Below are positions 10,223 through 32,000 of a stretch of 32,000 nucleotides of DNA, piece by piece (position 1 is the first letter of the stretch; each line of letters starts with the position of its first letter). The stretch is taken from assembly GCA_965234525.1 (NCBI GenBank), contig OZ248515.1, positions 1,124,032 to 1,156,031 of the forward strand. Reading direction: 5' to 3'. A program made the translations under genes and the position numbers. This DNA comes from Caulobacteraceae bacterium. Lineage in GTDB: Bacteria; Pseudomonadota; Alphaproteobacteria; Caulobacterales; Aquidulcibacteraceae. The notes under the pieces are model-generated. The model worked only from the letters and a program-made list of their open reading frames with translations. It did no database searches and was not told where the DNA came from.

Positions 10223-11590
10223 TTACTGCCCTGAAGGGATTAGCGTGATGTCTGTTTGGCGACCATCGATGTAGCGCACGTGAGTCCCATCAAAGAATGC
10301 GTTCTCTTCAGCCCGAAAATCGACGCGCTGACCGTCCCATTCGGGCACTGCGGCGAAAGTTGTCAGCTCAATTGACCAAGCCGTATTCGCGGCAATCAAG
10401 CCGCTGCCGCGTGGATCAGCATTCTGATTATCCCAAAATCCGATTGAGGGGCCTGCGCCGTGACCATGCAAGCCAATTGGATGCGAGTAAATTGATGCAT
10501 CAAGACCGGCCGCCGCCGCTTCTGCCCGTGTAAGCGCCAGCACCTCGTTGCCACTGCGCCCAGTTGCGAAATTGCGGGTGAGCATATCTTGGACACGGTT
10601 GCTGTTTGCTAGCCCCTGCCTGAGGCCCGCGGGCGCTTTGCTCTCGCCCGGCTTCAAGACATAAGCGAGATGCTGCATGTCGGTATTCAGCCGCAGGTAT
10701 GTGATGCCAAAATCTGTCCATAACAAATCGCCGGGCTGGATCACTTCCTCGCCTTCGAGCATGCCTTTGGCACCCTTGCGCTGGATCCCGACGGACGGAT
10801 GAAACCACGGATCCAGGCCGAGTTGGAGCAGCCGGTCGCGATACCACCACTGCACCTGCTCTGCCGTCGTCACGCCCGGGGTGATGACCGACCGCGAAAA
10901 CGCTTCGCCAATCACCTTATGAGCCATTCGCATGAGTGTCGGGTAGATCTCCATTTCTGCGGGCGTGCGCGTTTCAAGCCAACGGATGGCGAGCGCTTCG
11001 CCACTGACGATCCGCGCCTGCAAAGGAGCAGGCAAAGCGGCAACAAACTTCTGATACTGACTGAGCGTCATACCATCGGCGAACTGATAAAGATCGGAGG
11101 TGTTGATCGCAATTTTTCCGGGATTACGCTGCGCGATTATGTCTGCGACCGCCTTCCACTGATCCGGCTGCTTACTCGGATCCCAAGCTGGCGCGAACAA
11201 GCCGCCAAGCCCATAGCGGCTGACGGTTAGGCGCTCGATCGGCTTCCCATTACCTGGGTCGTAGAAGATCAAAATTGTACGCCGGCGTGCATGCATGTTT
11301 TCCGCATCCAGCATCGATGCAACCACCGGCTCTTCAAAATATTCACGGGCCACCAGCAGCCATAAATCGATGCGCTGTTCGCGCATGATCGCGGGGATGA
11401 TGGTGTCAAGCCGCTCCGCCAAAATGCGGTTCTCCGTTTTCGCTCGCTCGCGCGCGCTTTGGATCGGGGGCAGCGCGGGTGAGTGTTCGCCAGCCTGGCT
11501 TATCGTTACGGGCGCTGGTGCAGCGGCGACAGGAAGCGCAATAAGTGCCGCAAACAGCGCCACCCCAAAAACCCTATTTGTTGCCATCAT
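10223..11590 (-). CDS. Exported M24-family metallopeptidase (Xaa-Pro peptidase-like)
   Basis: Signal peptide MMATNRVFGVALFAALIALPVAAA, ITPGVTTAEQVQWWYRDRLLQLGLDPWFHPSVGIQRKG, GDLLWTDFGITYLRLNTDMQHLAYVL, HPIGLHGHGAGPSIGFWD. Confidence 0.85.
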   Translation of the reverse strand: MMATNRVFGVALFAALIALPVAAAPAPVTISQAGEHSPALPPIQSARERAKTENRILAERLDTIIPAIMREQRIDLWLLVAREYFEEPVVASMLDAENMHARRRTILIFYDPGNGKPIERLTVSRYGLGGLFAPAWDPSKQPDQWKAVADIIAQRNPGKIAINTSDLYQFADGMTLSQYQKFVAALPAPLQARIVSGEALAIRWLETRTPAEMEIYPTLMRMAHKVIGEAFSRSVITPGVTTAEQVQWWYRDRLLQLGLDPWFHPSVGIQRKGAKGMLEGEEVIQPGDLLWTDFGITYLRLNTDMQHLAYVLKPGESKAPAGLRQGLANSNRVQDMLTRNFATGRSGNEVLALTRAEAAAAGLDASIYSHPIGLHGHGAGPSIGFWDNQNADPRGSGLIAANTAWSIELTTFAAVPEWDGQRVDFRAEENAFFDGTHVRYIDGRQTDITLIPSGQ

Positions 11591-11732
11591 GCCCTCCCGA
11601 ACCAAGTGTGTCGACGCTACCCGATCGCGGCGCAAGCATCAAATCCCAGCCTTAACGAACATCGGCCAACGCTAACACCCTAAGCAAACCGGAGGACATT
11701 GCTTTGAGGCTTTGGTTTCTTCTCGATCGAGC

Positions 11733-13920: not shown

Positions 13921-14849
13921 GCAGAGGGTACCTGCAAACTATCGGTATTAGCCTTTTCGACTGCCTTCGCAGAACGGATACGCACCCGCTTGATCCGCCG
14001 CGGGTCTGCGTCAATCACTTCAAAATCATAGCCGGTTGGGTGATGAAGAATTTCGCCCCGCGGAGGCACCCGACCTGCGAGCGCGAAGACCAAACCGCCA
14101 AGCGTGTCGATATCATCTTCCATATCTTCCAGCGTCAGATCGACCCCAGCGCGCTCTGAAAAATCATCCAATTCCACCCGTGCATCGGCTTCCCAAACGC
14201 CATTGCCGGTATCGACGATTAAATCTTGGTCGAGATCGTCATGCTCATCATCAATATCGCCGATGATTTCTTCAACGAGATCTTCAATGGTCACAAGTCC
14301 ATCTGTGCCGCCATATTCGTCTATCACCAATGCCATGTGACACCGCTTCGCGCGCATTTGAAGCAACAAGTTCGGAAGCTTCATAGAGATGGGCACATAG
14401 AGCAAATCGCGCTTAAGCCGACCCAACACAAGATCATCCAATTTAGCTTTGGTCTCGCCTTGCTCATCCGGGATCAACAGCGACAGAATGTCTTTAACAT
14501 GGACAAACCCCAAAGGTGTATCGAGGTTTTCGGCGTAAACTGGCATGCGTGAATGCTGATGCTCTTCAAACATGCGGGCGACTTCACCCAGCGGCATTTC
14601 GATGTCGACGGCCGTAATGTCCGCGCGAGGCACCATCACATCGCGCACAGACAAGCGGTCAAAGCTGGCTGCTTTGACGATCATGTCCTTTTGATTGCGC
14701 TCAATGGTTTCGCCCGATTGCTCGCGCTCACGCAGAAGCTCTGCGGGGTCTAGGCCGGCATAATCATTCTGGCGACGCAATTTCTGCGTCCATCGCTTCC
14801 AAAAGCTAGGTTTCTTGGCTGAGTTACTACTGGATGGGTCGTCAGTCAT
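13917..14849 (-). CDS. CorC/HlyC/TlyC-family CBS-pair protein
   Basis: [60 protein letters not shown] plus CorC_HlyC tail; start chosen at MTDDPSSS. The ORF extends to 14870. Confidence 0.93.
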
Positions 14850-16338
14850 GGGTGTGATAAGGATCAGCAATGCCGAGGCTTGCCAATATCTCTCTCTCTA
14901 AGCCTTCCATCTCCGCCGCGTCATCTTCGGCTTCATGATCATATCCTAAAAGATGTAATAGCCCATGCACAAGTAGATGGGTAGCGTGATCTTTAAGATT
15001 CTTGCCTTGCTCTTGAGCCTCACGGGCACAGGTTTCATAGGCGAGGGCAACATCACCCAATGTCTTCTCCAACGCATGCACTGTCTCAGGTGCCGGAAAA
15101 GACAGGACATTTGTCGGCTGATCCTTATGCCGCCACTGGGCATTCAAACCTTGAACCACCGCGTCGCTGGTCATGAGCAACGCAAAGCTGTCTCCCGCTG
15201 GATCAAAATAACGTGAGACGACTTTCACAATCTTGCCGACTTCCGCTTCGGAATCAGGGCCAAACACCCCATGCCATCCTTCGATTTCAATTTGGACATC
15301 AACGTCAAAAGAAGCAGATTCCTCAGCCATCACGGGCTCTGGCGTTACCGGTGGCGAAGTCGGTGCGGGTGTCACATCTGCCACTTCGCGCTCATAGGCC
15401 GAAACAATCCGCCCGACGAGTGGGTGGCGAACCACGTCTTCGGCTGTGAAATGGACGATCTTCATCCCTTCTACACGTCGCAAAATGCGCAAGGCGTGGG
15501 GCAGACCGGAATCGCTGGAGCGCGGCAAATCAATCTGACTTGGGTCGCCATTGACGGCCATGCGCGAGCCCTCACCTAGGCGAGTCAGCAGCATTTTCAT
15601 CTGCATGCGCGTGGTATTTTGCGCTTCGTCCACGATGACAAAAGCATCAGACAAGGTGCGCCCGCGCATGAACGCTAAGGGTGCGACTTCAATTTCACCG
15701 GCTGCTTTTCGGCGCTCTAATTGGGCGGCACCCAGTAAAGTTTTGAAAGCATCCCAAATTGGTTGCAGATAGGGATCGACCTTTTCTTCAAGGTCGCCAG
15801 GCAGAAAGCCCAATCGTTCGCCGGCTTCCACCGCGGGGCGGGTGACGACGACGCGCGAAACGCGGCCCTCCAGCAACATCGAGACGGCGACGGCCACTGC
15901 TAGAAAAGTCTTGCCGGTCCCGGCAGGTCCAACGCCAAAAACCAAATCAAACTCACCACCCATCAGCGCATCTAGATAGACAGACTGGGTTGGGGTTCTA
16001 GGTTTGATGTCAGCGCGACGACCCGGTAAAGCCAACGCCCCGCTACGCGCACGCGACCCGGCGCGCACAAATGTAATGGCAGAGCGAACCTCAGGCAGCC
16101 CTAACGCCATCCCCGCTGCCGCCTTTTCAATCAAAGACTGCAAGGCCTCGCGTGCCTGATTAACAGACACGGGATCATCGCCATGGACAAGAATATCACC
16201 ACCTTGAGCCGTGACATCAACGCCAAATGCATCTTCGACCAAGGTCAGATTGCGATGGGCGGGCCCGGCCACCACAGGCACTAAGCTTGGGTTGGAGAGC
16301 GCGACGCGGCCCTCTTCAGACTTGCGACGACGCGTCAC
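14842..16338 (-). CDS. Fused PhoH-like NTPase and YbeY endoribonuclease in one reading frame (about 498 aa, GTG start)
   Basis: N-terminal PhoH core ([73 protein letters not shown]) continues without a stop into YbeY ([46 protein letters not shown]). The GTG at 16338 overlaps the miaB stop (GTGA). Confidence 0.9.
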
Positions 16339-17762
16339 GAAGCTGACACCAATTCCCCAGTGAGGGAATTCGGCATAGTGCCAATGATGCGTACGCTGTG
16401 AAGCTGGCCAATCAATTGCTCTGGCCCCGCAACATGGACGGACTGCAACCACGGCGACCGGCCGAGGATCTGGCCTTCATTGCGGCCTTTTCCCGTAAAG
16501 AGCACGTCAAACGTCTCCCCGACTTTGGCGGCATTGAAGGCGCGCTGCTGCTCAAGGATCAAAGCCTGCAAGCGTTGCAAACGATCATCGGCCACGTCGG
16601 AGGCGACTTGGCCATACATTTCCGAGGCAGGTGTGCCGGGGCGTTTAGAATATTTGAAGCTATAGGCACCCGCATAACCAACAGCGCGAACCAACTCCAT
16701 CGTATCTTCAAAGTCTTGCTCGGTCTCACCTGGGAAACCCACAATGAAATCAGAGGCCAAAGCAATATCGGGACGGGCTTTACGCACCTTCGCGATACTA
16801 TCGAGATAGCTCTCCACGCTGTGCTTCCGGTTCATAGCTTTCAGGATTTTGTTGGAGCCAGACTGCACGGGCAAATGCAGATAGGGCATCAATTCTTTCA
16901 CCTCGCCATGGGCCTCGATCAAGTCATCATCCATGTCACAGGGGTGAGATGTCGTATAACGGATCCGTTCGATCCCGCCGATTTTGGCTAAATGGCGAAC
17001 CAATTGTGCCAAGGACCATGTTTCAGAGCCTGCCAGCGCTGGACCTTGGCCGTGATAGGCGTTGACGTTCTGGCCCAAAAGCGTGATTTCGCGCACACCC
17101 TGTTGGGCAAGGCCGCGTGCTTCTTGAATAATGGGGTCCACTGGCCGCGAATATTCCGCCCCGCGCGTATAGGGCACCACACAGAACGTGCAGAACTTAT
17201 CGCACCCTTCTTGCACAGACAAAAAGGCCGATGGCCCGTCGGGTGTACGCAGGGTAGGCAGCGCATCAAATTTTTCTACCGCCTCAAAGCTCGTCTCAAG
17301 GCGCTCGCCAGTGGCGCGGGCTGCCCGCGCAATGAGCTCAGGTAGTTTGTGGTAGGCTTGCGGGCCAACCACCAAATCGACAGCCGGTGCACGACGCATG
17401 ATTTCTTCGCCTTCGGCTTGGGCAACACAGCCTGCAATAGCGATTGTCATTTTGTTGCCATTCAGCGCCATCTCATCCTTGTGCGCTTTCAAGCGTCCGA
17501 TTTCGGAATAGACTTTTTCAGTCGCCTTCTCGCGAATGTGGCAGGTATTGAGCACAACAAGGTTCGCATGATCGGGCTTATCAACCGAGCTATAACCCAG
17601 AGGCCGCAAGACATCGGCCATGCGTTCACTGTCATAGACATTCATCTGACAGCCATAAGTCTGAATAAACAGGGTTTTGCCGGCTACGGCATCGCCCGTT
17701 TGCACAGGTGTCAGTCGATCCATCAGATCGTCTTTGTGGGATGTTGCGGCGTCTTCATGCAT
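16335..17762 (-). CDS. miaB: tRNA-2-methylthio-N6-dimethylallyladenosine synthase
   Basis: [37 protein letters not shown] radical-SAM cluster, [18 protein letters not shown]. Confidence 0.96.
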
Positions 17763-17840: not shown

Positions 17841-18347
17841 TCAGGCGATGAAGGCCACAGCATCGCCCGGCTTGGCCTGCTTCAAAAGTTCGCGCAAGTC
17901 TGCTTCAGCCAAGGCCACACAGCCTTCCGTCGGCCGGTAGTCTTCTGACGCACAGTGCATGAAGATGGCGGATCCCATGGCGGGAACGACCGGATCATCA
18001 TTATGACCAAGGACCACGACAATATTGTAGAGCCCATCCTCGCGCCACAAATGTTCAGCGCTGGCCGGATAGGGGTGCGTGATCGGACGGTTATAATTGG
18101 GATCTTCGGCCGCATCACACCATCCATCGTGGGGTTGAATGGCCGTTGCCTCAAACCCAGACGCCGGCTTGGGCCCGCGATCTTCACGCCAGAGAATTGC
18201 GCGGATCGGCCACACCCCCAAAGGACTGGCCCCATCGCCTTCACGCTTCTCTTGGGCGGATTTAGCACCGCCCTTACCAATGGAACACCGCACTTTCGTC
18301 TGACCATAGGTCAACCAACCTGATGTTGATGCTGCAAAAACCTGCAT
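17841..18347 (-). CDS. L,D-transpeptidase (YkuD) family protein
   Basis: KVRCSIGKGG, GDGASPLGVWP, GHNDDPVVPAMGSAIFMHCASEDYRPTEGCVAL (HxxxxxxxxxxGCV-type active site). Confidence 0.85.
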   Translation of the reverse strand: MQVFAASTSGWLTYGQTKVRCSIGKGGAKSAQEKREGDGASPLGVWPIRAILWREDRGPKPASGFEATAIQPHDGWCDAAEDPNYNRPITHPYPASAEHLWREDGLYNIVVVLGHNDDPVVPAMGSAIFMHCASEDYRPTEGCVALAEADLRELLKQAKPGDAVAFIA

Positions 18348-18422
18348 AAAATCCCCCAGATCAAGACTCTGTGATGCAGCGCCCTCTTGTATCAGGCAAT
18401 AGGGTACAACCATGTAGAGCCC

Positions 18423-20364: not shown

Positions 20365-20482
20365 ATGGGACTCCCTGATCCTTGGTTTATCCACTCTAGG
20401 GGTGAGTCATTGCCTTGCCAATGTTGAAACGTTATTTGATATAAAGATAGATCATTTCTCGAAGTTGGATGCACGGCCCAGC

Positions 20483-21799
20483 ATGGCAGAAGCCACCAAA
20501 CCTCAAAAGGTGTTTTCGGGCCAAACCTTAGCCCAAAAGCTACTGGCGCGGGCATCAGGTCGCGACGATGTGGCCCCAGGTGATATCGTCATCGTCAACG
20601 TCGACCTTGCTATGGCCCATGATTCAAGCGGACCCCGGCGGTGGAAGCCACACCTAGACGCCCTTGGCGCAACCTTGTGGGATCCTTCCCGCGTGGTGAT
20701 TGTGTCAGACCATTATGTGCCTGCGGTCGATGCGGAGAGTGCGGCGATTCTGAAGCTGACGCGCACGTTTGCCAAGGAGCAGAATGTTGGTCATTTCTTT
20801 GATATGGAAGGGATTTGCCACGCCCTTCTTCCACAGAAGGGCCTTTTGAGACCGGGCATTTTTGTCGCCGGTGGCGACAGTCACACCCCCCATGCCGGTG
20901 CCTTTGGATGCTATGCCGCAGGCTTCGGCGCTACCGACATGCTGGGCATTGTGGTTACCGGAAAAACCTGGACAATCGTTCCTGAAACAATTCGAGTTGA
21001 ATTAACGGGCAGCTTTAAGCACCATGTTTCGGCTAAAGACGTCATGTTGCTTCTCTGTCGCGAGCTTGGAATGGATAATGCGTTCAAGGCCATCGAATAT
21101 GGTGGTCCAGGTGTGGCTGGGATGTCGATGGAAGAACGCATGGTTTTGTCCAATATGGCCGCAGAACTCGGTGGCGAAGTTGGTCTGATCGCGGCGGACA
21201 GTGTGACGCTAGATCATATTCGCGCCCATGGCGGAGAAACGTCGGAAGGTGATTTGGCCTGGCAACCCGATCCAGATGCAAATTACGAGCGGATTGTTAC
21301 GATCAACCTTAGCGATCTTGAGCCGCAAATTGCCGCACCCCATTCACCCGCCAACAGCTTTCCGATTAGCCACGCGGCCGGCGTGCCAATCGATCAGGCC
21401 TATATCGGTGCTTGTGTTGGCGCAAAGTTAGAAGATTTGCACATGGCAGCCCAAATCCTAAAGGGCCAGCGCATTGCCGAAGGTGTGCGCCTTTTGGTTG
21501 CGCCAGCAAGTTCGCAAGTCACAGCCGATGCGGCTGCCGACGGGACCTTGTCGATCTTACTGGCTGCTGGGGCGACTCTCTTGCCATCGGGTTGTGGCGC
21601 GTGCGCAGGTATGGGGGCAGGCTTATTGGCAGCAGGTGAAACGTGCATCTCCACGACCAATCGCAATTTCAAAGGCCGGATGGGACATTCGGAGGCCTTG
21701 GTCTTTTTAGGGTCACCCTACACGGTTGCGGCCAGCGCAATCGCTGGCTGCGTTAGTGATCCCCGCTTGCATGCGGCGGATCTAGCGGGGGCGGCATGA
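20483..21799 (+). CDS. Aconitase/3-isopropylmalate dehydratase large-subunit family hydro-lyase (substrate unknown)
   Basis: VNVDLAMAHDSSG, GIFVAGGDSHTPHAGAFGCYAAGFGATDM, LPSGCGACAGMGAGLLAAGETCISTTNRNFKGRMG. First ATG consistent with homology at 20483; the ORF extends upstream to 20357. Confidence 0.9.
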   Translation: MAEATKPQKVFSGQTLAQKLLARASGRDDVAPGDIVIVNVDLAMAHDSSGPRRWKPHLDALGATLWDPSRVVIVSDHYVPAVDAESAAILKLTRTFAKEQNVGHFFDMEGICHALLPQKGLLRPGIFVAGGDSHTPHAGAFGCYAAGFGATDMLGIVVTGKTWTIVPETIRVELTGSFKHHVSAKDVMLLLCRELGMDNAFKAIEYGGPGVAGMSMEERMVLSNMAAELGGEVGLIAADSVTLDHIRAHGGETSEGDLAWQPDPDANYERIVTINLSDLEPQIAAPHSPANSFPISHAAGVPIDQAYIGACVGAKLEDLHMAAQILKGQRIAEGVRLLVAPASSQVTADAAADGTLSILLAAGATLLPSGCGACAGMGAGLLAAGETCISTTNRNFKGRMGHSEALVFLGSPYTVAASAIAGCVSDPRLHAADLAGAA

Positions 21800-23255: not shown

Positions 23256-24083
23256 GTGCATGTGGATTGCATGGTGATTAAGCGCGGCCACGTCAGTGAA
23301 AAGCATCTGGGAACAGATGTCTGGGCTCAACCGTGGTTGAGTCGGCTTTCCTGCGTCTTCATAGCCTTTGGATTGTTGCTTGGCGGAATGGCAACCGCGC
23401 AAACGCAAAAGCGCGCCAGCGACCTTACCCTGAATGATATGTTCACCAGCCCCAATGCCGCGGCCTCGCAGGCGGTCTCCTTCAGTGCCGGGCCGAACAA
23501 CATCCGCTTTGTGCTGGACCGTTCCCAGCCACGCGTCGTTTTATTGCGATTTGACGGCGATCCAGAGGTCTGGGCACTGACCTCGCAATGGGGCCCCCGA
23601 GGCGATGAATTTCTACGCAATGATATCGGCGAAGTCATTGTTCGGATCACGACATTAGGCGGCGTGACCATTTATGGCCCGCTCGGGACCAATGGAGGCC
23701 TTGCTGCAAGCGAAGGCAAAGCTAAAACCCTATCAGCACCTGCGCGAAGCGAAGCTACCTTACAGGCGACCCTAGAAAAGGCACTGCGATGGTTTGATAA
23801 ATTTTCTAACCGTAGCATTCGGGTGGAAGCAGCCGGTGCTTTGCCTCCTGCTTTAGTCTACGAGGCCCTTGAGCGCGCCGCACAAGGCATGTCGCGCGCG
23901 CCTCGTGGCTATTTTGGTCGTCCCGAGCGCCGTGTTAAACTTATTCGTGTCCAGCGCAGCTTTGATCGGCCCAGTGTGCGTTGGCAATCGGGCGTTTTGA
24001 CCATTGGTGTTGTGCCTGGTGCTGGCTATGCCGGAAGACCGTCCAGTGCCGCTGTCCTATTGGCGCTTACGAAGAGCAGTTAG
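23256..24083 (+). CDS. Exported hypothetical protein (possibly DUF4908-like)
   Basis: N-terminal hydrophobic export signal ending ...MATAQTQ. Intact 275 aa ORF; family assignment from memory only. Confidence 0.6.
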   Translation: MHVDCMVIKRGHVSEKHLGTDVWAQPWLSRLSCVFIAFGLLLGGMATAQTQKRASDLTLNDMFTSPNAAASQAVSFSAGPNNIRFVLDRSQPRVVLLRFDGDPEVWALTSQWGPRGDEFLRNDIGEVIVRITTLGGVTIYGPLGTNGGLAASEGKAKTLSAPARSEATLQATLEKALRWFDKFSNRSIRVEAAGALPPALVYEALERAAQGMSRAPRGYFGRPERRVKLIRVQRSFDRPSVRWQSGVLTIGVVPGAGYAGRPSSAAVLLALTKSS

Positions 24084-25093: not shown

Positions 25094-25537
25094 TTACGCT
25101 GGCATGCCTTCGCAGCGCAGATATTTTTCGGGCATTGCACCATCCCAGGAGATACTGGCGGTATCGTCACCGGTTTGTTCAATTATCAAGCTGAATGTAA
25201 CGCCAACGCCATTTTTGCCTTTAACCTCGTAGCCTTTTTCAATTGGCTCTACAGTCAAAACCTTATGTCGCTCGATCCCCGACGGCCGAATGCTGTCCAG
25301 CCAATAGCCCGTCTCTTCGTCCATCAGGACATAGCCTTGGTTCATCCGCTGTGGATTACAAGCAAGTGGTCCGGGATCACCGGGCTGGCCCAAGAAGGCA
25401 GCATTGGTATCCTTACCGGCAAATAAAAATTCACGGTCATCCGCCGAAATTTTGCCAAGCGGATCAGCTGGTGCGCAGGCTATTGCGAACACGCCCGCCG
25501 CCAGAACACTTAGAATCAGAGTATAGCGCATCGCCAA
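25094..25537 (-). CDS. Hypothetical lipoprotein
   Basis: Signal peptide with lipobox-like AGVFAIACAP, 147 aa ORF. Confidence 0.6.
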   Translation of the reverse strand: MAMRYTLILSVLAAGVFAIACAPADPLGKISADDREFLFAGKDTNAAFLGQPGDPGPLACNPQRMNQGYVLMDEETGYWLDSIRPSGIERHKVLTVEPIEKGYEVKGKNGVGVTFSLIIEQTGDDTASISWDGAMPEKYLRCEGMPA

Positions 25538-28577: not shown

Positions 28578-29624
28578 CTAGGTCAAACCCTTCACACGCC
28601 GCATCACATATTCGACATTGGCGATCGGCGTTGCTGGCACCACACCATGTCCAAGGTTGAAGATATGTGGTCCCGTGGCCGCTACGGCAAGAATAGCATC
28701 GACAGCTTGCTCAAGCGCGGGTCCACCTGCCATCAAAGCCATGGGATCAAGATTGCCTTGTAAACAAACCTTTGGGCCCAACGCAGTCCGCGCTGCGCCT
28801 AAATCTGCAGCAATATCGAGGCCGACTCCTTGGACAGTCGTTTCAGCAAAGAATTGACCAACCCGATGACCTGCCCCTCGCGGAAAACCAATAATAGGAA
28901 CATTGGGATAGACCGCGCGTACCACATCTACGACCTGCTTGATTGGCTTGGTTACGAGACGCGCGAACAGGTGACCGGGAATATCTTCAGCCCAAGATTC
29001 AAAAATCTGTAGCGCATTTGCACCCGCTTTAACCTGAGCAATTAGATGTTGGCCAATCGCCTCAGCCAGAATTTCTAAGAGATCGTCGACTAATTCTGGG
29101 TTCTGATACGCAAAAGCACGAGCAAGATCACGCTCACCGCCGCGGCCCTGAATCATATAGGTCGCCAAGGTCCAAGGAGCACCAGCGAAGCCTATTAGAG
29201 CACGGTCCTCGTCCATGGCGGCCCGAACCCGCTCTAGAGCCTCATAGACCGGCGCTAAACGTGTTTCGAGACGGGACATATCTAGTTTTGCGATATCTGC
29301 CGCGCCCTCCAACGGGGTCAATAGCGGGCCTTCGCCTTCGGCAAAGCGCACATCTCGGCCCAATGCATGGGGCACCACCAGAATATCGGAGAAGATAATC
29401 GCGGCATCGACCGGATATCTGCGGACTGGTTGCAACGTTGCTTCGGCCGCAGCTGCTGGCGCATAGCAAAAATCAAGGAAGCTCTTATTCTTCGCGCGAA
29501 GTTCACGATATTCCGGCAAATGGCGGCCCGCTTGGCGCATCAGCCAGATCGGTGGATGTGCTTGTTGTTCACCTAGGAGGGTGCGAACCAATGCGCTGTT
29601 GTGACCCTTTGCTCCCTCACCCAT
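28578..29624 (-). CDS. hemE: Uroporphyrinogen decarboxylase
   Basis: PPIWLMRQAGRHLPEYRELR, GFAGAPWTLATYMIQG, VKAGANALQIFESWAEDI, HIFNLGHGVVPATP. Confidence 0.98.
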   Translation of the reverse strand: MGEGAKGHNSALVRTLLGEQQAHPPIWLMRQAGRHLPEYRELRAKNKSFLDFCYAPAAAAEATLQPVRRYPVDAAIIFSDILVVPHALGRDVRFAEGEGPLLTPLEGAADIAKLDMSRLETRLAPVYEALERVRAAMDEDRALIGFAGAPWTLATYMIQGRGGERDLARAFAYQNPELVDDLLEILAEAIGQHLIAQVKAGANALQIFESWAEDIPGHLFARLVTKPIKQVVDVVRAVYPNVPIIGFPRGAGHRVGQFFAETTVQGVGLDIAADLGAARTALGPKVCLQGNLDPMALMAGGPALEQAVDAILAVAATGPHIFNLGHGVVPATPIANVEYVMRRVKGLT

Positions 29625-29680
29625 GGCGGGCTCCCCTTCCCTTATATATTTTAGATTCTTGAATCAGTAGATAGTAGTAC

Positions 29681-29689
29681 GGTGGATAG
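29681..29689 (-). promoter_or_regulatory. DnaA-box-like site, 2 mismatches
   Basis: GGTGGATAG on the + strand = CTATCCACC, core TATCCAC intact. Confidence 0.4.
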
Positions 29690-29760
29690 ACTGATCCTTG
29701 GAAGTCACCTGCATGACCTAACGGGATTTCTCAAGCTGTTTATCAGCTTTTGCCCCTGTT

Positions 29761-29769
29761 TTTTCCACA
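29761..29769 (+). promoter_or_regulatory. DnaA box
   Basis: TTTTCCACA, exact match to TTWTNCACA. Confidence 0.7.
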
Positions 29770-29828
29770 GCGCATCCGATATGAAAAGTACCGAAAATCA
29801 TGCGATTGCTCTAGATAGCATTAAAGAT

Positions 29829-29837
29829 TTACCCACA
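29829..29837 (+). promoter_or_regulatory. DnaA-box-like site, 1 mismatch
   Basis: TTACCCACA versus TTATCCACA. Confidence 0.5.
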
Positions 29838-29850
29838 TTGGGGATGCTTG

Positions 29851-29863
29851 TATCAATAGCTTA
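29851..29863 (+). promoter_or_regulatory. IHF binding site
   Basis: TATCAATAGCTTA, exact match to WATCAANNNNTTR. Confidence 0.6.
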
Positions 29864-29870
29864 CCAGCCT

Positions 29871-29879
29871 TGTGGATGT
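29871..29879 (-). promoter_or_regulatory. DnaA-box-like site, 2 mismatches
   Basis: TGTGGATGT on the + strand = ACATCCACA. Confidence 0.4.
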
Positions 29880-29986
29880 TCGAGAAAAGTTCCAGAGGCT
29901 TTATCCCTTTGTACTTCCCACGCAGCAATTTGTTTCGCTAATTCATACAAAATTAACCGTGTTTTTTAGAGATTCATTAAGCTTTT

Positions 29987-30001
29987 TTAACAAGTTGTTA
30001 A
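29987..30001. promoter_or_regulatory. CtrA-type binding site (TTAA-N7-TTAA)
   Basis: TTAACAAGTTGTTAA: exact TTAA-N7-TTAA and a perfect 7+1+7 palindrome. Additional TTAA at 29953-29956 (TTAACCGT) and 29977-29980. Confidence 0.65.
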
Positions 30002-30048
30002 CAGCCCTACCGGGGTAAACTGGTCCACCTATCGGTACCTTTTGGTCA

Positions 30049-30067
30049 GACCTAAAGAAGTTAGGTC
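30049..30067. repeat. Short perfect inverted repeat upstream of the PpsR-like gene
   Basis: GACCTAA-agaag-TTAGGTC. Confidence 0.6.
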
Positions 30068-30120
30068 AGAAAATGTATGAAGACCTTGATCCGAAATGGT
30101 TCGTCGGTCACAGCTTTTCT

Positions 30121-30942
30121 ATGCGCATTTCCACTTTTCTAAACGTTCATTTGGTGTCTGACTCCACAGGCGAAACGCTCAACGCAGTTTTGCGGGCCGT
30201 TGCGCCCTTATTTGAAGGCGTGACGCCTTTAGAGCATTCCTATTATTTGGTGCGCTCTCGCCGCCAACTTGACCGGGTTTTGGCTGAGATTGAGTCCTTC
30301 CCCGGCGTGGTACTGTTCACGATTGCCGCGCATGATCTCCGCGATGTTTTGGTTGATCATTGCAAGCATTTGGGCATTCCAGCACTACCGCTCTTAGATC
30401 AAGTTCTCACCATGTGGGAACATCATCTGAAAATGCGCGCCGGTGAAAAGACAGGCTCTAAGCAAGCATTGGACGAAAATTACTTTCGTCGGATTGACGC
30501 TCTTAACTACACCATGGCCCATGATGACGGCCAAATGGTACATGAGTTCAATCAAGCGGATGTGGTGCTTGTGGGCGTCAGTCGGACCTCAAAAACGCCA
30601 ACGTCAATTTATCTTGCCAACCGCGGTATTCGAACAGGGAATTTCCCGCTGGTGCCAAAAGCCCCAATCCCTCAAGCGCTGTTAGAACTCAATAAGCCAT
30701 TGGTTGTTGGGTTGCGGGTTTCTCCTGATCGGTTGATTGCCATTCGCCGTAACCGGCTTTTGTCGCTTAATGCCGATGCGACCAGTGAATATGTTGATGA
30801 AGATGCGGTGCGCGAAGAGATTACGGACGCTAACCGTTTGTTTGAACGTCAGAATTGGCCCGTAATCGATGTAACCCGACGATCAATTGAAGAAACCTCG
30901 GCCGCCATTTTGAATCTGCTTACAGACCGGAATGCAAAATAG
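30121..30942 (+). CDS. Pyruvate, phosphate/water dikinase regulatory protein (PpsR/DUF299, RP001-like)
   Basis: FLNVHLVSDSTGETLNAVLRA, DVVLVGVSRTSKTPTSIYLANRGIRTGNFPLVP. Start at ATG 30121 preferred over 30073. Confidence 0.93.
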   Translation: MRISTFLNVHLVSDSTGETLNAVLRAVAPLFEGVTPLEHSYYLVRSRRQLDRVLAEIESFPGVVLFTIAAHDLRDVLVDHCKHLGIPALPLLDQVLTMWEHHLKMRAGEKTGSKQALDENYFRRIDALNYTMAHDDGQMVHEFNQADVVLVGVSRTSKTPTSIYLANRGIRTGNFPLVPKAPIPQALLELNKPLVVGLRVSPDRLIAIRRNRLLSLNADATSEYVDEDAVREEITDANRLFERQNWPVIDVTRRSIEETSAAILNLLTDRNAK

Positions 30943-30944
30943 TC

Positions 30945-31532
30945 ATGCTAACGCTCGCTTCTACCAGCACCATTCGTCGTCATCTCCTCACGCAAGCCGG
31001 CATTCGTTTTGAGGCTATCGGATCTGGTGTAGACGAAGATGCCGTAAAAGAGGCGATGCGGGCTGAAGGGGCTAGTCCGCGCAATCAAGCGGATAAGCTC
31101 GCTGAACTTAAGGCGTTGAAGGTTTCACAAAGACGGCCGGGCTTTGTCCTCGGCTGTGACCAAATCCTGTCGTTTGAAGGCCATTCGTTTGACAAGGCCG
31201 AAACACTGGACGAGGCTTTTGAACGCCTCAGCCAATTGCGCGGCAAGACACACACCCTTGAATGCGCAGCGGTTATCGCAAAAGAGGGTCAACCTGTCTG
31301 GCGCTTAGTAACGAGCCCAAAACTAACCATGCGGGCCTTTTCGGATGATTTCTTGCGCTCATACCTGACGTCGTATGGTCAAGAGGCGCTTGCAAGTGTC
31401 GGCTGTTATCAGTTTGAGGGCCCTGGTGCGCAATTGTTTGAGAAGGTTGAGGGGGACTTTTTTTCAATCCTTGGCCTGCCGTTATTAGAGGTCCTAGCCT
31501 TCTTGCGTCTGCATGGGGAGGTCCCAACTTGA
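30945..31532 (+). CDS. maf: Maf-family nucleotide pyrophosphatase
   Basis: LASTSTIRRHLLTQAGIRFEAIGSGVDEDAVKEAMRAEGASPRNQADKLAELKA, FVLGCDQILSFEG. Confidence 0.9.
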   Translation: MLTLASTSTIRRHLLTQAGIRFEAIGSGVDEDAVKEAMRAEGASPRNQADKLAELKALKVSQRRPGFVLGCDQILSFEGHSFDKAETLDEAFERLSQLRGKTHTLECAAVIAKEGQPVWRLVTSPKLTMRAFSDDFLRSYLTSYGQEALASVGCYQFEGPGAQLFEKVEGDFFSILGLPLLEVLAFLRLHGEVPT

Positions 31533-32000
31533 AGATTAGCGGATCGACCGAGCTTTATGCGGTTTTGGGCAATCCGGTGCGGCATTCCATGTCACCGGTT
31601 TTGCAAAACGCGTGGATACAAGCACACGGATTTAACGCGCTTTATGTCGCACTTCCTATTGAGCTGGAAGACTTTGAGGCGGCCCTTCAAGGCTTGGCCG
31701 CTAGCGATGTGTGTGGGCTAAACATCACAACACCGTTCAAGGAACGCGCGGCGCAGGCGGCCTTGCGTCAATCTGACCGGGTGAAATTGGTTGGCGCTGC
31801 TAATTGCCTAAGTTTGGACCGAGCTGGTCGCGGGTACGATGCCAACAACACGGACGGCGACGGTCTGGTTGTTGATCTGGACGCGCGGGCATCTGACTGG
31901 CGCGATTCTGCCGGACATATAGTGGTTCTGGGCGCCGGCGGGGCGGCCCGCTCCATTCTTGCGGCTCTATCCGCGCATAGCCAAACTGCCATTTGCGTCA
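31529..32000 (+). CDS. aroE: Shikimate dehydrogenase (3' truncated by window edge, TTG start)
   Basis: Translation from TTG 31529: KISGSTELYAVLGNPVRHSMSPVLQNAWIQAHG...NITTPFKERAA...VGAANCLSL...NTDGDG...VVLGAGGAARSILAAL. Confidence 0.93.
   Translation, partial: MKISGSTELYAVLGNPVRHSMSPVLQNAWIQAHGFNALYVALPIELEDFEAALQGLAASDVCGLNITTPFKERAAQAALRQSDRVKLVGAANCLSLDRAGRGYDANNTDGDGLVVDLDARASDWRDSAGHIVVLGAGGAARSILAALSAHSQTAICV

Follow-up and report, generated by a model that had tools for sequence, protein, structure and literature searches.

The closest described system, the chromosomal replication origin Cori of Caulobacter crescentus, was mapped experimentally beside hemE and overlaps the duf299 open reading frame (ORF) (PMC6393856, PMC1914354). 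DnaA boxes of two strengths are found in it, moderate (G; two) and weak (W; five), alongside five CtrA sites, five GANTC sites, an IHF site and an A+T-rich region (PMC6393856, PMC4468827, PMC1914354); methylation of Cori by CcrM is dispensable for Caulobacter replication (PMC6393856). Further hemE-linked origins have been predicted for Rickettsia prowazekii, Wolbachia, Ehrlichia and Anaplasma (Brassinga 2002, Ioannidis 2007). Here, we analyzed a stretch of 32,000 nt (the window, positions 1,124,032 to 1,156,031 of contig OZ248515.1, assembly GCA_965234525.1) from a Caulobacterales bacterium of the Aquidulcibacter clade. The 448-bp intergenic gap between hemE and a ppsR-like gene (29625-30072) is predicted to be the chromosomal replication origin of this bacterium, and from the sequence we put the probability of this reading at roughly 85%. 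An earlier note on the same DNA had proposed a Cori-like oriC at this place, a proposal that is supported by synteny, conservation, duplex instability, exact CtrA sites confined to the gap and a switch in third-position skew. A Cori-type origin in a hemE-ppsR gap is expected rather than surprising and changes nothing in existing knowledge: the hemE/DUF299 location and the make-up of DnaA, CtrA and GANTC sites were established over twenty years ago for Cori and its relatives.

The gap is bounded on the left by hemE (uroporphyrinogen decarboxylase; 28578-29624, minus strand; TIGR01464 with 377 bits at a cut-off of 303) and on the right by a gene for a PpsR-like regulator of the DUF299/COG1806/RP001 type (30073-30942, plus strand; NF003742 with 311 bits at a cut-off of 225). 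The latter is followed on the plus strand by maf (30945-31532, family match) and by aroE, of which the window contains the first part (from 31529 to 32000, confirmed), so that the family matches bear out the flanking genes named before; hemH, hemJ and rho lie upstream of hemE on the same strand. Scanning representative genomes with the PpsR-like protein yielded 19 loci, the closest of which belong to Aquidulcibacter, ‘Hyphomonadaceae bacterium UKL13-1’ (complete genome CP012156.1, with the orthologous gap at about 3,271,348-3,271,796) and Candidatus Phycosocius, and the most distant to four Caulobacter (L016-L019), including C. vibrioides DSM 9893. DNA identity to the window is 96.8% for the nearest locus (L001) and 78-90% for the other close relatives; a phylogenomic study places Aquidulcibacter in the proposed family Aquidulcibacteraceae, sister to Hyphomonadaceae (PMC12700997). 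Wherever a locus offers enough sequence, it shows the arrangement rho-hemJ-hemH-hemE, gap, ppsR-maf-aroE-coaE-dnaQ, and this holds for the four Caulobacter loci too (in the relatives, maf-aroE is followed by coaE, dnaQ, secB on the minus strand, a Tim44-like gene and mltA). Because this nine-gene block is collinear with that of C. vibrioides, where Cori lies between hemE and the DUF299 gene (CCNA_00001), the gap is, by position, the orthologue of an origin that has been tested. It is also the longest and most A+T-rich gap of the 32 kb, with a G+C content of 41.5% compared to 54.1% for the window.

The gap had been drawn before as 29625-30120. Its left edge stands, but for the right edge 30072 is more likely, because the ORF of the ppsR-like gene opens with an ATG at 30073 and the 16 codons of 30073-30120 carry a peptide-like pattern (MxExLDPxxxVGH) that is kept among relatives with variation of the third-position or synonymous type. 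The start is ambiguous in that the family match begins just after an alternative ATG at 30121; in the relatives, L007 has a CTG at the first position of the longer frame and in L012 this frame is apparently broken. With either end, the size of the gap (448-496 bp) is similar to that of Cori (~520 bp).

A gap between two divergent genes may also be nothing more than their shared promoter and regulatory region, with the true origin elsewhere. The conserved elements described below would then be promoter elements and operators, for instance for activation of ppsR by CtrA and for a hemE promoter that is sensitive to methylation. We consider this unlikely, since the corresponding gap within the same nine-gene block is the mapped Caulobacter origin. 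It is true that both genes must be transcribed out of the gap. The two readings are, however, not mutually exclusive, because promoters and origin overlap in Cori. A scan for sigma-70 consensus promoters and for terminators found nothing, which speaks against a mere promoter region, although Caulobacter promoters differ from that consensus.

Duplex stability, calculated as the nearest-neighbour free energy (dG) of 40-mers over the whole 32 kb, sets the gap apart from the rest of the window. The least stable 40-mer of all, 29641-29680 (dG -41.0 kcal/mol; window mean -57.5 kcal/mol, standard deviation 3.8), begins 16 bp upstream of the hemE ATG and is a candidate DNA unwinding element; the second least stable, 29962-30001 (-43.3 kcal/mol), lies in the same gap on the ppsR side. 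That both fall here speaks against a mere divergent promoter region; in favour of one, the Shine-Dalgarno sequence of hemE (GGGGAG, 29631-29636) lies 7 bp from the A+T-rich element. Among the relatives, the least stable 40-mer of the locus falls in the hemE-ppsR gap in 16 of 18 loci, and a hemE-proximal element of low stability is found 12-52 bp from the hemE ATG in 17 of 18 (offsets of 12-26 bp in the clade of the window and 43-52 bp in Caulobacter). The A+T-rich element that Cori has next to hemE is likewise the least stable 40-mer of the 12.8-kb C. vibrioides locus; a hemE-proximal A+T-rich element of ~40 bp as the least stable DNA of the locus is thus common to the gap and Cori. The ppsR-proximal element (offset ~315-337 bp), in contrast, is specific to the clade of the window and has no counterpart in Cori.

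To assess conservation, 14 related gaps were aligned (their identity to the window averages 0.68); it is given as the percentile among same-length windows of the gap. The candidate unwinding element contains the sequence GATTC-TT-GAATC (29654-29665), two GANTC sites of the CcrM type that form a palindrome with 5-bp arms, at the 99th percentile; a GANTC palindrome within this element distinguishes the locus from Cori. In Escherichia coli oriC, the 13-mer unwinding element is followed by box R1, TGTGGATAA. The plus strand of the present gap reads similarly, with the A+T-rich stretch 29641-29677, then TAC and then GGTGGATAG, i.e. an unstable A+T-rich element lies directly 5' of a DnaA box on the same strand, as do the 13-mers and R1. 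The three NAN triplets TAG TAG TAC (29672-29680, plus strand) abut this box and correspond to the minimal DnaA-trio pattern of the basal unwinding system of Bacillus subtilis, for which the published search asks for three or more NAN triplets, preferably 3'-GAT-5', no farther than 16 bp from a box with at most two mismatches and in the correct orientation (PMC8287927). They are weak evidence: unlike in B. subtilis, there is no G+C-rich spacer and there are only three triplets, and so permissive a pattern should arise fairly often by chance.

As DnaA-box-like we counted 9-mers with up to two mismatches to TTATCCACA. The first, CTATCCACC on the minus strand (29681-29689, two mismatches), adjoins the candidate unwinding element in R1-type orientation; it reaches the 97th conservation percentile, and its GTGGA core is invariant across the 14 sequences. 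In Cori, too, the first DnaA-type box follows the A+T-rich element in the same orientation. Farther into the gap lie TTTTCCACA (29761-29769, plus strand; one mismatch, exact for the relaxed consensus TTWTNCACA; 94th percentile) and TTACCCACA (29829-29837, plus strand; one mismatch). The latter is only at the 53rd percentile by identity, but the relatives retain a box-like core at its position (ACCCACA, ACCCCCA or ATCCACA). It forms the left half of a head-to-head pair whose right half, GCATCCCCA (29839-29847, minus strand; three mismatches), had not been described before; relatives have TGGGGA or TGTGGA there, and the sequence resembles TCATCCCCA boxes, a sequence that occurs twice in the C. 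vibrioides gap (L018). The most conserved element of the gap (100th percentile) is ACATCCACA (29871-29879, minus strand; plus strand TGTGGATGT; two mismatches), which continues into a conserved extension, TCGAGAAAAGTTCC (29880-29893, minus strand; 94th percentile). All five box-like motifs listed earlier (29681, 29761, 29829, 29871 and 30021) are present where they had been placed; the fifth, TGGTCCACC (30021-30029, plus strand), is probably no DnaA site, as it has three mismatches to TTATCCACA and is unconserved (12th percentile).

With four boxes of up to two mismatches, the gap holds 8.1 boxes per kb compared to 1.9 per kb outside, and these four (29681-29879) are the sole cluster of at least four per 200 bp in the window. 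The same contrast is seen in the 18 related gaps, with 8-17 box-like sequences per kb inside and 1.2-2.9 per kb in the flanks. The layout had been characterized before as sparser and more divergent than that of Caulobacter. Sparser it is (four boxes, where the other loci have five to eight, and one exact CtrA site, where Caulobacter has four exact and one near); ‘more divergent’, however, is inaccurate, because the boxes have TCCACA cores and come nearer to the E. coli consensus than do the G and W boxes of Cori, which are weak and of the TCCCCA type, two of the present boxes being only one mismatch away from TTATCCACA. In the alignment, the most conserved islands are three of the boxes (29871, 29681 and 29761), the pair of GANTC sites and the CtrA site that matches exactly; that three inverted DnaA-type boxes are among them speaks against a gap serving transcription alone. 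As a side observation, the heptamer TCCACAG, chosen post hoc, occurs nine times on both strands of the window (including 29764 and 30163) compared to 3.3 expected, a number reached in one of 100 shuffles.

Three of the six CtrA matches of the window lie within 60 bp (29942-30001) in the second A+T-rich element and form a predicted CtrA operator cluster: TTCATACAAAATTAA at 29942 and TTAGAGATTCATTAA at 29966, each with one mismatch and the second containing the GANTC site at 29971, and the exact motif TTAACAAGTTGTTAA (TTAA-N7-TTAA) at 29987-30001. The exact site, which the earlier note had already claimed, is confirmed as the sole exact match of the 32 kb and lies at the 98th conservation percentile. 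It is well conserved yet not invariant, since its second half reads TGAAC instead of TTAAC in 4 of the 14 relatives. Under the composition of the gap itself, the probability of the exact site is 0.035 and that of the sites with up to one mismatch 0.036. Of the 18 related loci, 14 have exact CtrA sites in the gap, and none has one in the flanks. The cluster is ~110 bp away from the closest conserved DnaA box and ~70 bp upstream of the ppsR ATG at 30073; the latter distance is usual for promoters that depend on CtrA and in this respect agrees with a purely regulatory role of the gap.

Like Cori, the gap thus combines CtrA sites of the TTAA-N7-TTAA type with GANTC sites, but their arrangement differs. 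Cori has its five CtrA sites distributed over the whole origin, with two in the A+T-rich element near hemE (PMC6393856), and our motif inventory of the Caulobacter gap contains four exact sites and one near site; here, one exact and two degenerate sites are gathered within 60 bp on the ppsR side, and conserved CtrA sites and conserved DnaA boxes nowhere overlap. Outside the motifs, the two gaps are unalignable. At the CtrA sites of some related gaps we noticed sequences of the TTAACCAC type (L013:5124, L015:5932, L018:5928), in which a CtrA half-site (TTAAC) is combined with the core of a DnaA box (CCAC) and of which the window has a weaker version, TTAACCGTG, at 29953-29961; such hybrids hint at overlapping CtrA and DnaA recognition.

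The three GANTC sites reported before for the gap (29654, 29661 and 29971) are confirmed. Their number is unremarkable under the composition of the gap (P=0.15), and the density of GANTC is higher in the gap than in the flanks in all of the 18 related loci, usually 2-5 fold. GANTC is generally favoured in intergenic DNA of alphaproteobacteria that possess CcrM, which would also be compatible with a promoter region. Across the window (1-32000), GANTC is strongly depleted, with 66 sites compared to 120.6 expected (100 of 100 shuffles had at least 66), which fits the genome of an alphaproteobacterium with CcrM-type methylation. The IHF site is a different case: an exact match to the consensus WATCAANNNNTTR, TATCAATAGCTTA, does lie at 29851-29863 (plus strand) as noted earlier, but it fails as evidence for an origin and is probably a chance match. 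The window has two matches compared to 1.19 expected, the site is at the 34th conservation percentile and the E. coli consensus is absent from all 17 of 17 related gaps. As these include the Caulobacter gaps, the consensus is itself a poor test.

Singly, the motifs of the gap are marginal; jointly and together with their conservation, they are beyond chance. The combination of boxes, exact CtrA site, near CtrA sites and GANTC sites was reached in one of 20,000 simulations with the composition of the gap (P ~5e-5), and none of the other gaps of the window has more than two boxes, more than one CtrA-like site or more than one GANTC. The locus displays what has been used for in-silico prediction of hemE-linked origins, namely hemE and a COG1806 gene as bounds, DnaA and CtrA sites in a gap of >300 bp, raised A+T content and motif conservation among relatives (PMC1914354). 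It resembles the predicted origins also in its few CtrA sites, of which Anaplasma has one (PMC1914354), and differs from them in belonging to a free-living member of the Caulobacterales, in keeping both boundary genes together and in the lack of a conserved IHF site.

An origin should further be recognizable by a switch in strand bias. We used skews at third codon positions (GC3 and AT3), which separate strand bias from gene orientation. Left of the gap, the 15 minus-strand genes have a GC3 skew of +0.032 and an AT3 skew of -0.196, and the 13 plus-strand genes of -0.052 and -0.095, respectively (p=0.01 for GC3 and p=0.013 for AT3 between both classes). The seven plus-strand genes right of the gap (taken from L001; GC3 skew +0.023, AT3 skew -0.217) match the minus-strand class on the left and are distinct from the plus-strand class there (p=0.03 for GC3 and 0.0125 for AT3). 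In this small sample, the G- and T-rich signature of the leading strand is therefore carried by the minus strand left of the gap and by the plus strand right of it. Such a switch is what an origin at or near the gap predicts, while a terminus predicts the opposite; a change of signature at this point also speaks against a mere promoter region.

The switch also bears on the question whether the gap could be the relic of an ancestral origin whose motifs have partly decayed, initiation having moved elsewhere, e.g. to a dnaA-linked site. The window has the fewest boxes among the 18 related gaps and a single exact CtrA site, there is no dnaA in sight near the locus, and hemE and the COG1806 gene have parted from the origin in some alphaproteobacteria, e.g. 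Wolbachia (PMC1914354). Nevertheless, we regard a relic as decidedly unlikely, because the boxes, the GANTC pair and the CtrA site show strong purifying conservation although the flanking DNA is only 78-90% identical, and because the local strand-bias switch is present; the elements of low stability are conserved as well.

Several observations weigh against an origin in the gap. DnaA boxes are no stand-alone evidence: DnaA-box-like 9-mers are not enriched in the window as a whole (63 compared to 65 expected), clusters of at least four in 200 bp arise in 28% of simulated 32-kb sequences and the number in the gap has a probability of 0.06 under its own composition, so that the cluster is not significant by itself, which also suits a mere promoter region. 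The triplets next to the box at 29681 are conserved in close relatives and degraded in the distant L011, L012 and L015; because of this decay and the permissive pattern, we give them little weight. The islands of conservation might instead be operators or promoter elements that belong to hemE and ppsR. The skew test is based on 13, 15 and 7 genes over ~36 kb, with the right-hand genes coming from the 96.8%-identical L001. The plain cumulative GC skew within the window has two equally deep minima, at ~20.5 kb and ~30.5 kb; it tracks gene orientation, by which it is governed, and was rejected as uninformative. Finally, neither dnaA nor parAB was seen in the 30 kb to the left or, in relatives, the ~6 kb to the right.

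The conservation of the gap might also be driven by an RNA. In C. crescentus, the gene of the 182-nt non-coding RNA CcnA lies inside Cori between two CtrA boxes (PMC8959179), and a 60-bp block of the present gap, AAGTCACCTGCATGACCTAACGGGATTTCTCAAGCTGTTTATCAGCTTTTGCCCCTG (29700-29760), is ~80% conserved in the close clade, contains GTCA-N6-TGAC and matches no origin motif. That the gap encodes a small regulatory RNA of this kind is nonetheless hardly credible. We found no Rfam match at E<=1, and RNAalifold, applied to the plus strand of the 14-sequence alignment, gave -9.29 kcal/mol with a covariation term of -0.01, i.e. no structure supported by covariation. The sole long helix predicted there consists of the inverted DnaA boxes (29871 is complementary to the box core at 29763), and there is no CtrA box at a suitable spacing, ~200 bp upstream of the 29942-30001 cluster. 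Within the same 60-bp block, a hairpin AGCTG-TTTAT-CAGCT (~29736-29752) was discarded, its pairing being disrupted in several relatives. An Irr/ICE-box reading of TTTAGATTCTTGAATCA was likewise dropped, as the right half is mismatched (judged by eye against the consensus).

Taking the gap as a replication origin, we infer protein binding, unwinding and firing along the following lines. DnaA would load on the boxes at 29681 (minus strand) and 29761 (plus strand), on the head-to-head pair 29829 (plus)/29839 (minus) and on 29871 (minus), and would then open 29641-29680, which abuts the box at 29681; this stretch carries the palindromic CcrM-type GANTC pair. CtrA may bind at 29942-30001, with its one exact and two degenerate sites, and repress initiation and/or drive the ppsR promoter. 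Both flanking genes must have their promoters within this gap, as is the case in Cori.

The near-consensus boxes, the GANTC palindrome in the candidate unwinding element and the single CtrA cluster placed elsewhere raise the possibility, in our view a doubtful one, that the origin of the Aquidulcibacteraceae has been rewired. The CtrA cluster is ~300 bp away from the hemE-proximal candidate unwinding element and lies in the clade-specific second A+T-rich element. If rewiring were true, CtrA would control initiation by another geometry, e.g. by blocking a second unwinding site or a helicase-loading site; alternatively, it would largely have given up control of the origin and regulate only ppsR. 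Origins of marine Caulobacter species were reportedly described by Shaheen, Ouimet and Marczynski in 2009; to our knowledge, the proposed Aquidulcibacteraceae were not part of that work. These origins likewise belong to the Caulobacterales and have CtrA sites laid out unlike those of freshwater Caulobacter, and their use of CtrA probably evolved independently (PMC4468827).

Some further features of the gap and the window were noted. Just upstream of the ATG at 30073 lies an inverted repeat, TCAGACCTAA-agaag-TTAGGTCAGA (30046-30070, plus strand), which is partly conserved in the close clade and is likely part of the ppsR leader (as a hairpin) or an operator; we assign it no role in the origin. 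Three draft assemblies break nearby: L010 (NZ_BPFZ01000004.1) begins in the gap, 75 bp upstream of ppsR, L001 begins inside hemE and L013 is at a contig end. These breaks may be due to chance or to an assembly effect near the origin. A second short divergent gap, between a YciI-like gene (minus strand) and a leuC/hacA-like gene (plus strand), is found at 20380-20520. It is A+T-rich, and the 40-mer at 20420-20459 is third in the window for low stability; TTATCCACT (20387), two GANTC sites (20369 and 20404) and a local minimum of the cumulative GC skew are likewise found here. As a rival origin we rejected this gap (20395-20518, 124 bp), inside which there are 0 boxes with up to two mismatches, no CtrA site and no origin-type synteny; it is probably the operator and promoter region of the adjacent GntR-regulated operon. 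On the minus strand at 14842-16452, a single ORF of 536 aa joins a PhoH-like ATPase (residues 146-353) and a YbeY RNase (residues 404-529) within the usual miaB-phoH-ybeY-corC-lnt run; a genuine fusion, loss of a stop codon or a frameshift introduced by sequencing could each account for it. Four ORFs had no NCBIfam match at E<=0.001, namely 10223-11635 (minus strand, 470 aa), 17841-18413 (minus strand, 190 aa), 23256-24083 (plus strand, 275 aa) and 25094-25537 (minus strand, 147 aa).

For an uncultured or little-studied freshwater lineage of the Caulobacterales, the likely origin can thus be placed. Its position would be of use for setting genome coordinates, for estimating growth rates from metagenome coverage by the peak-to-trough ratio and for studying how the control of initiation by CtrA and DnaA has evolved outside of Caulobacter.

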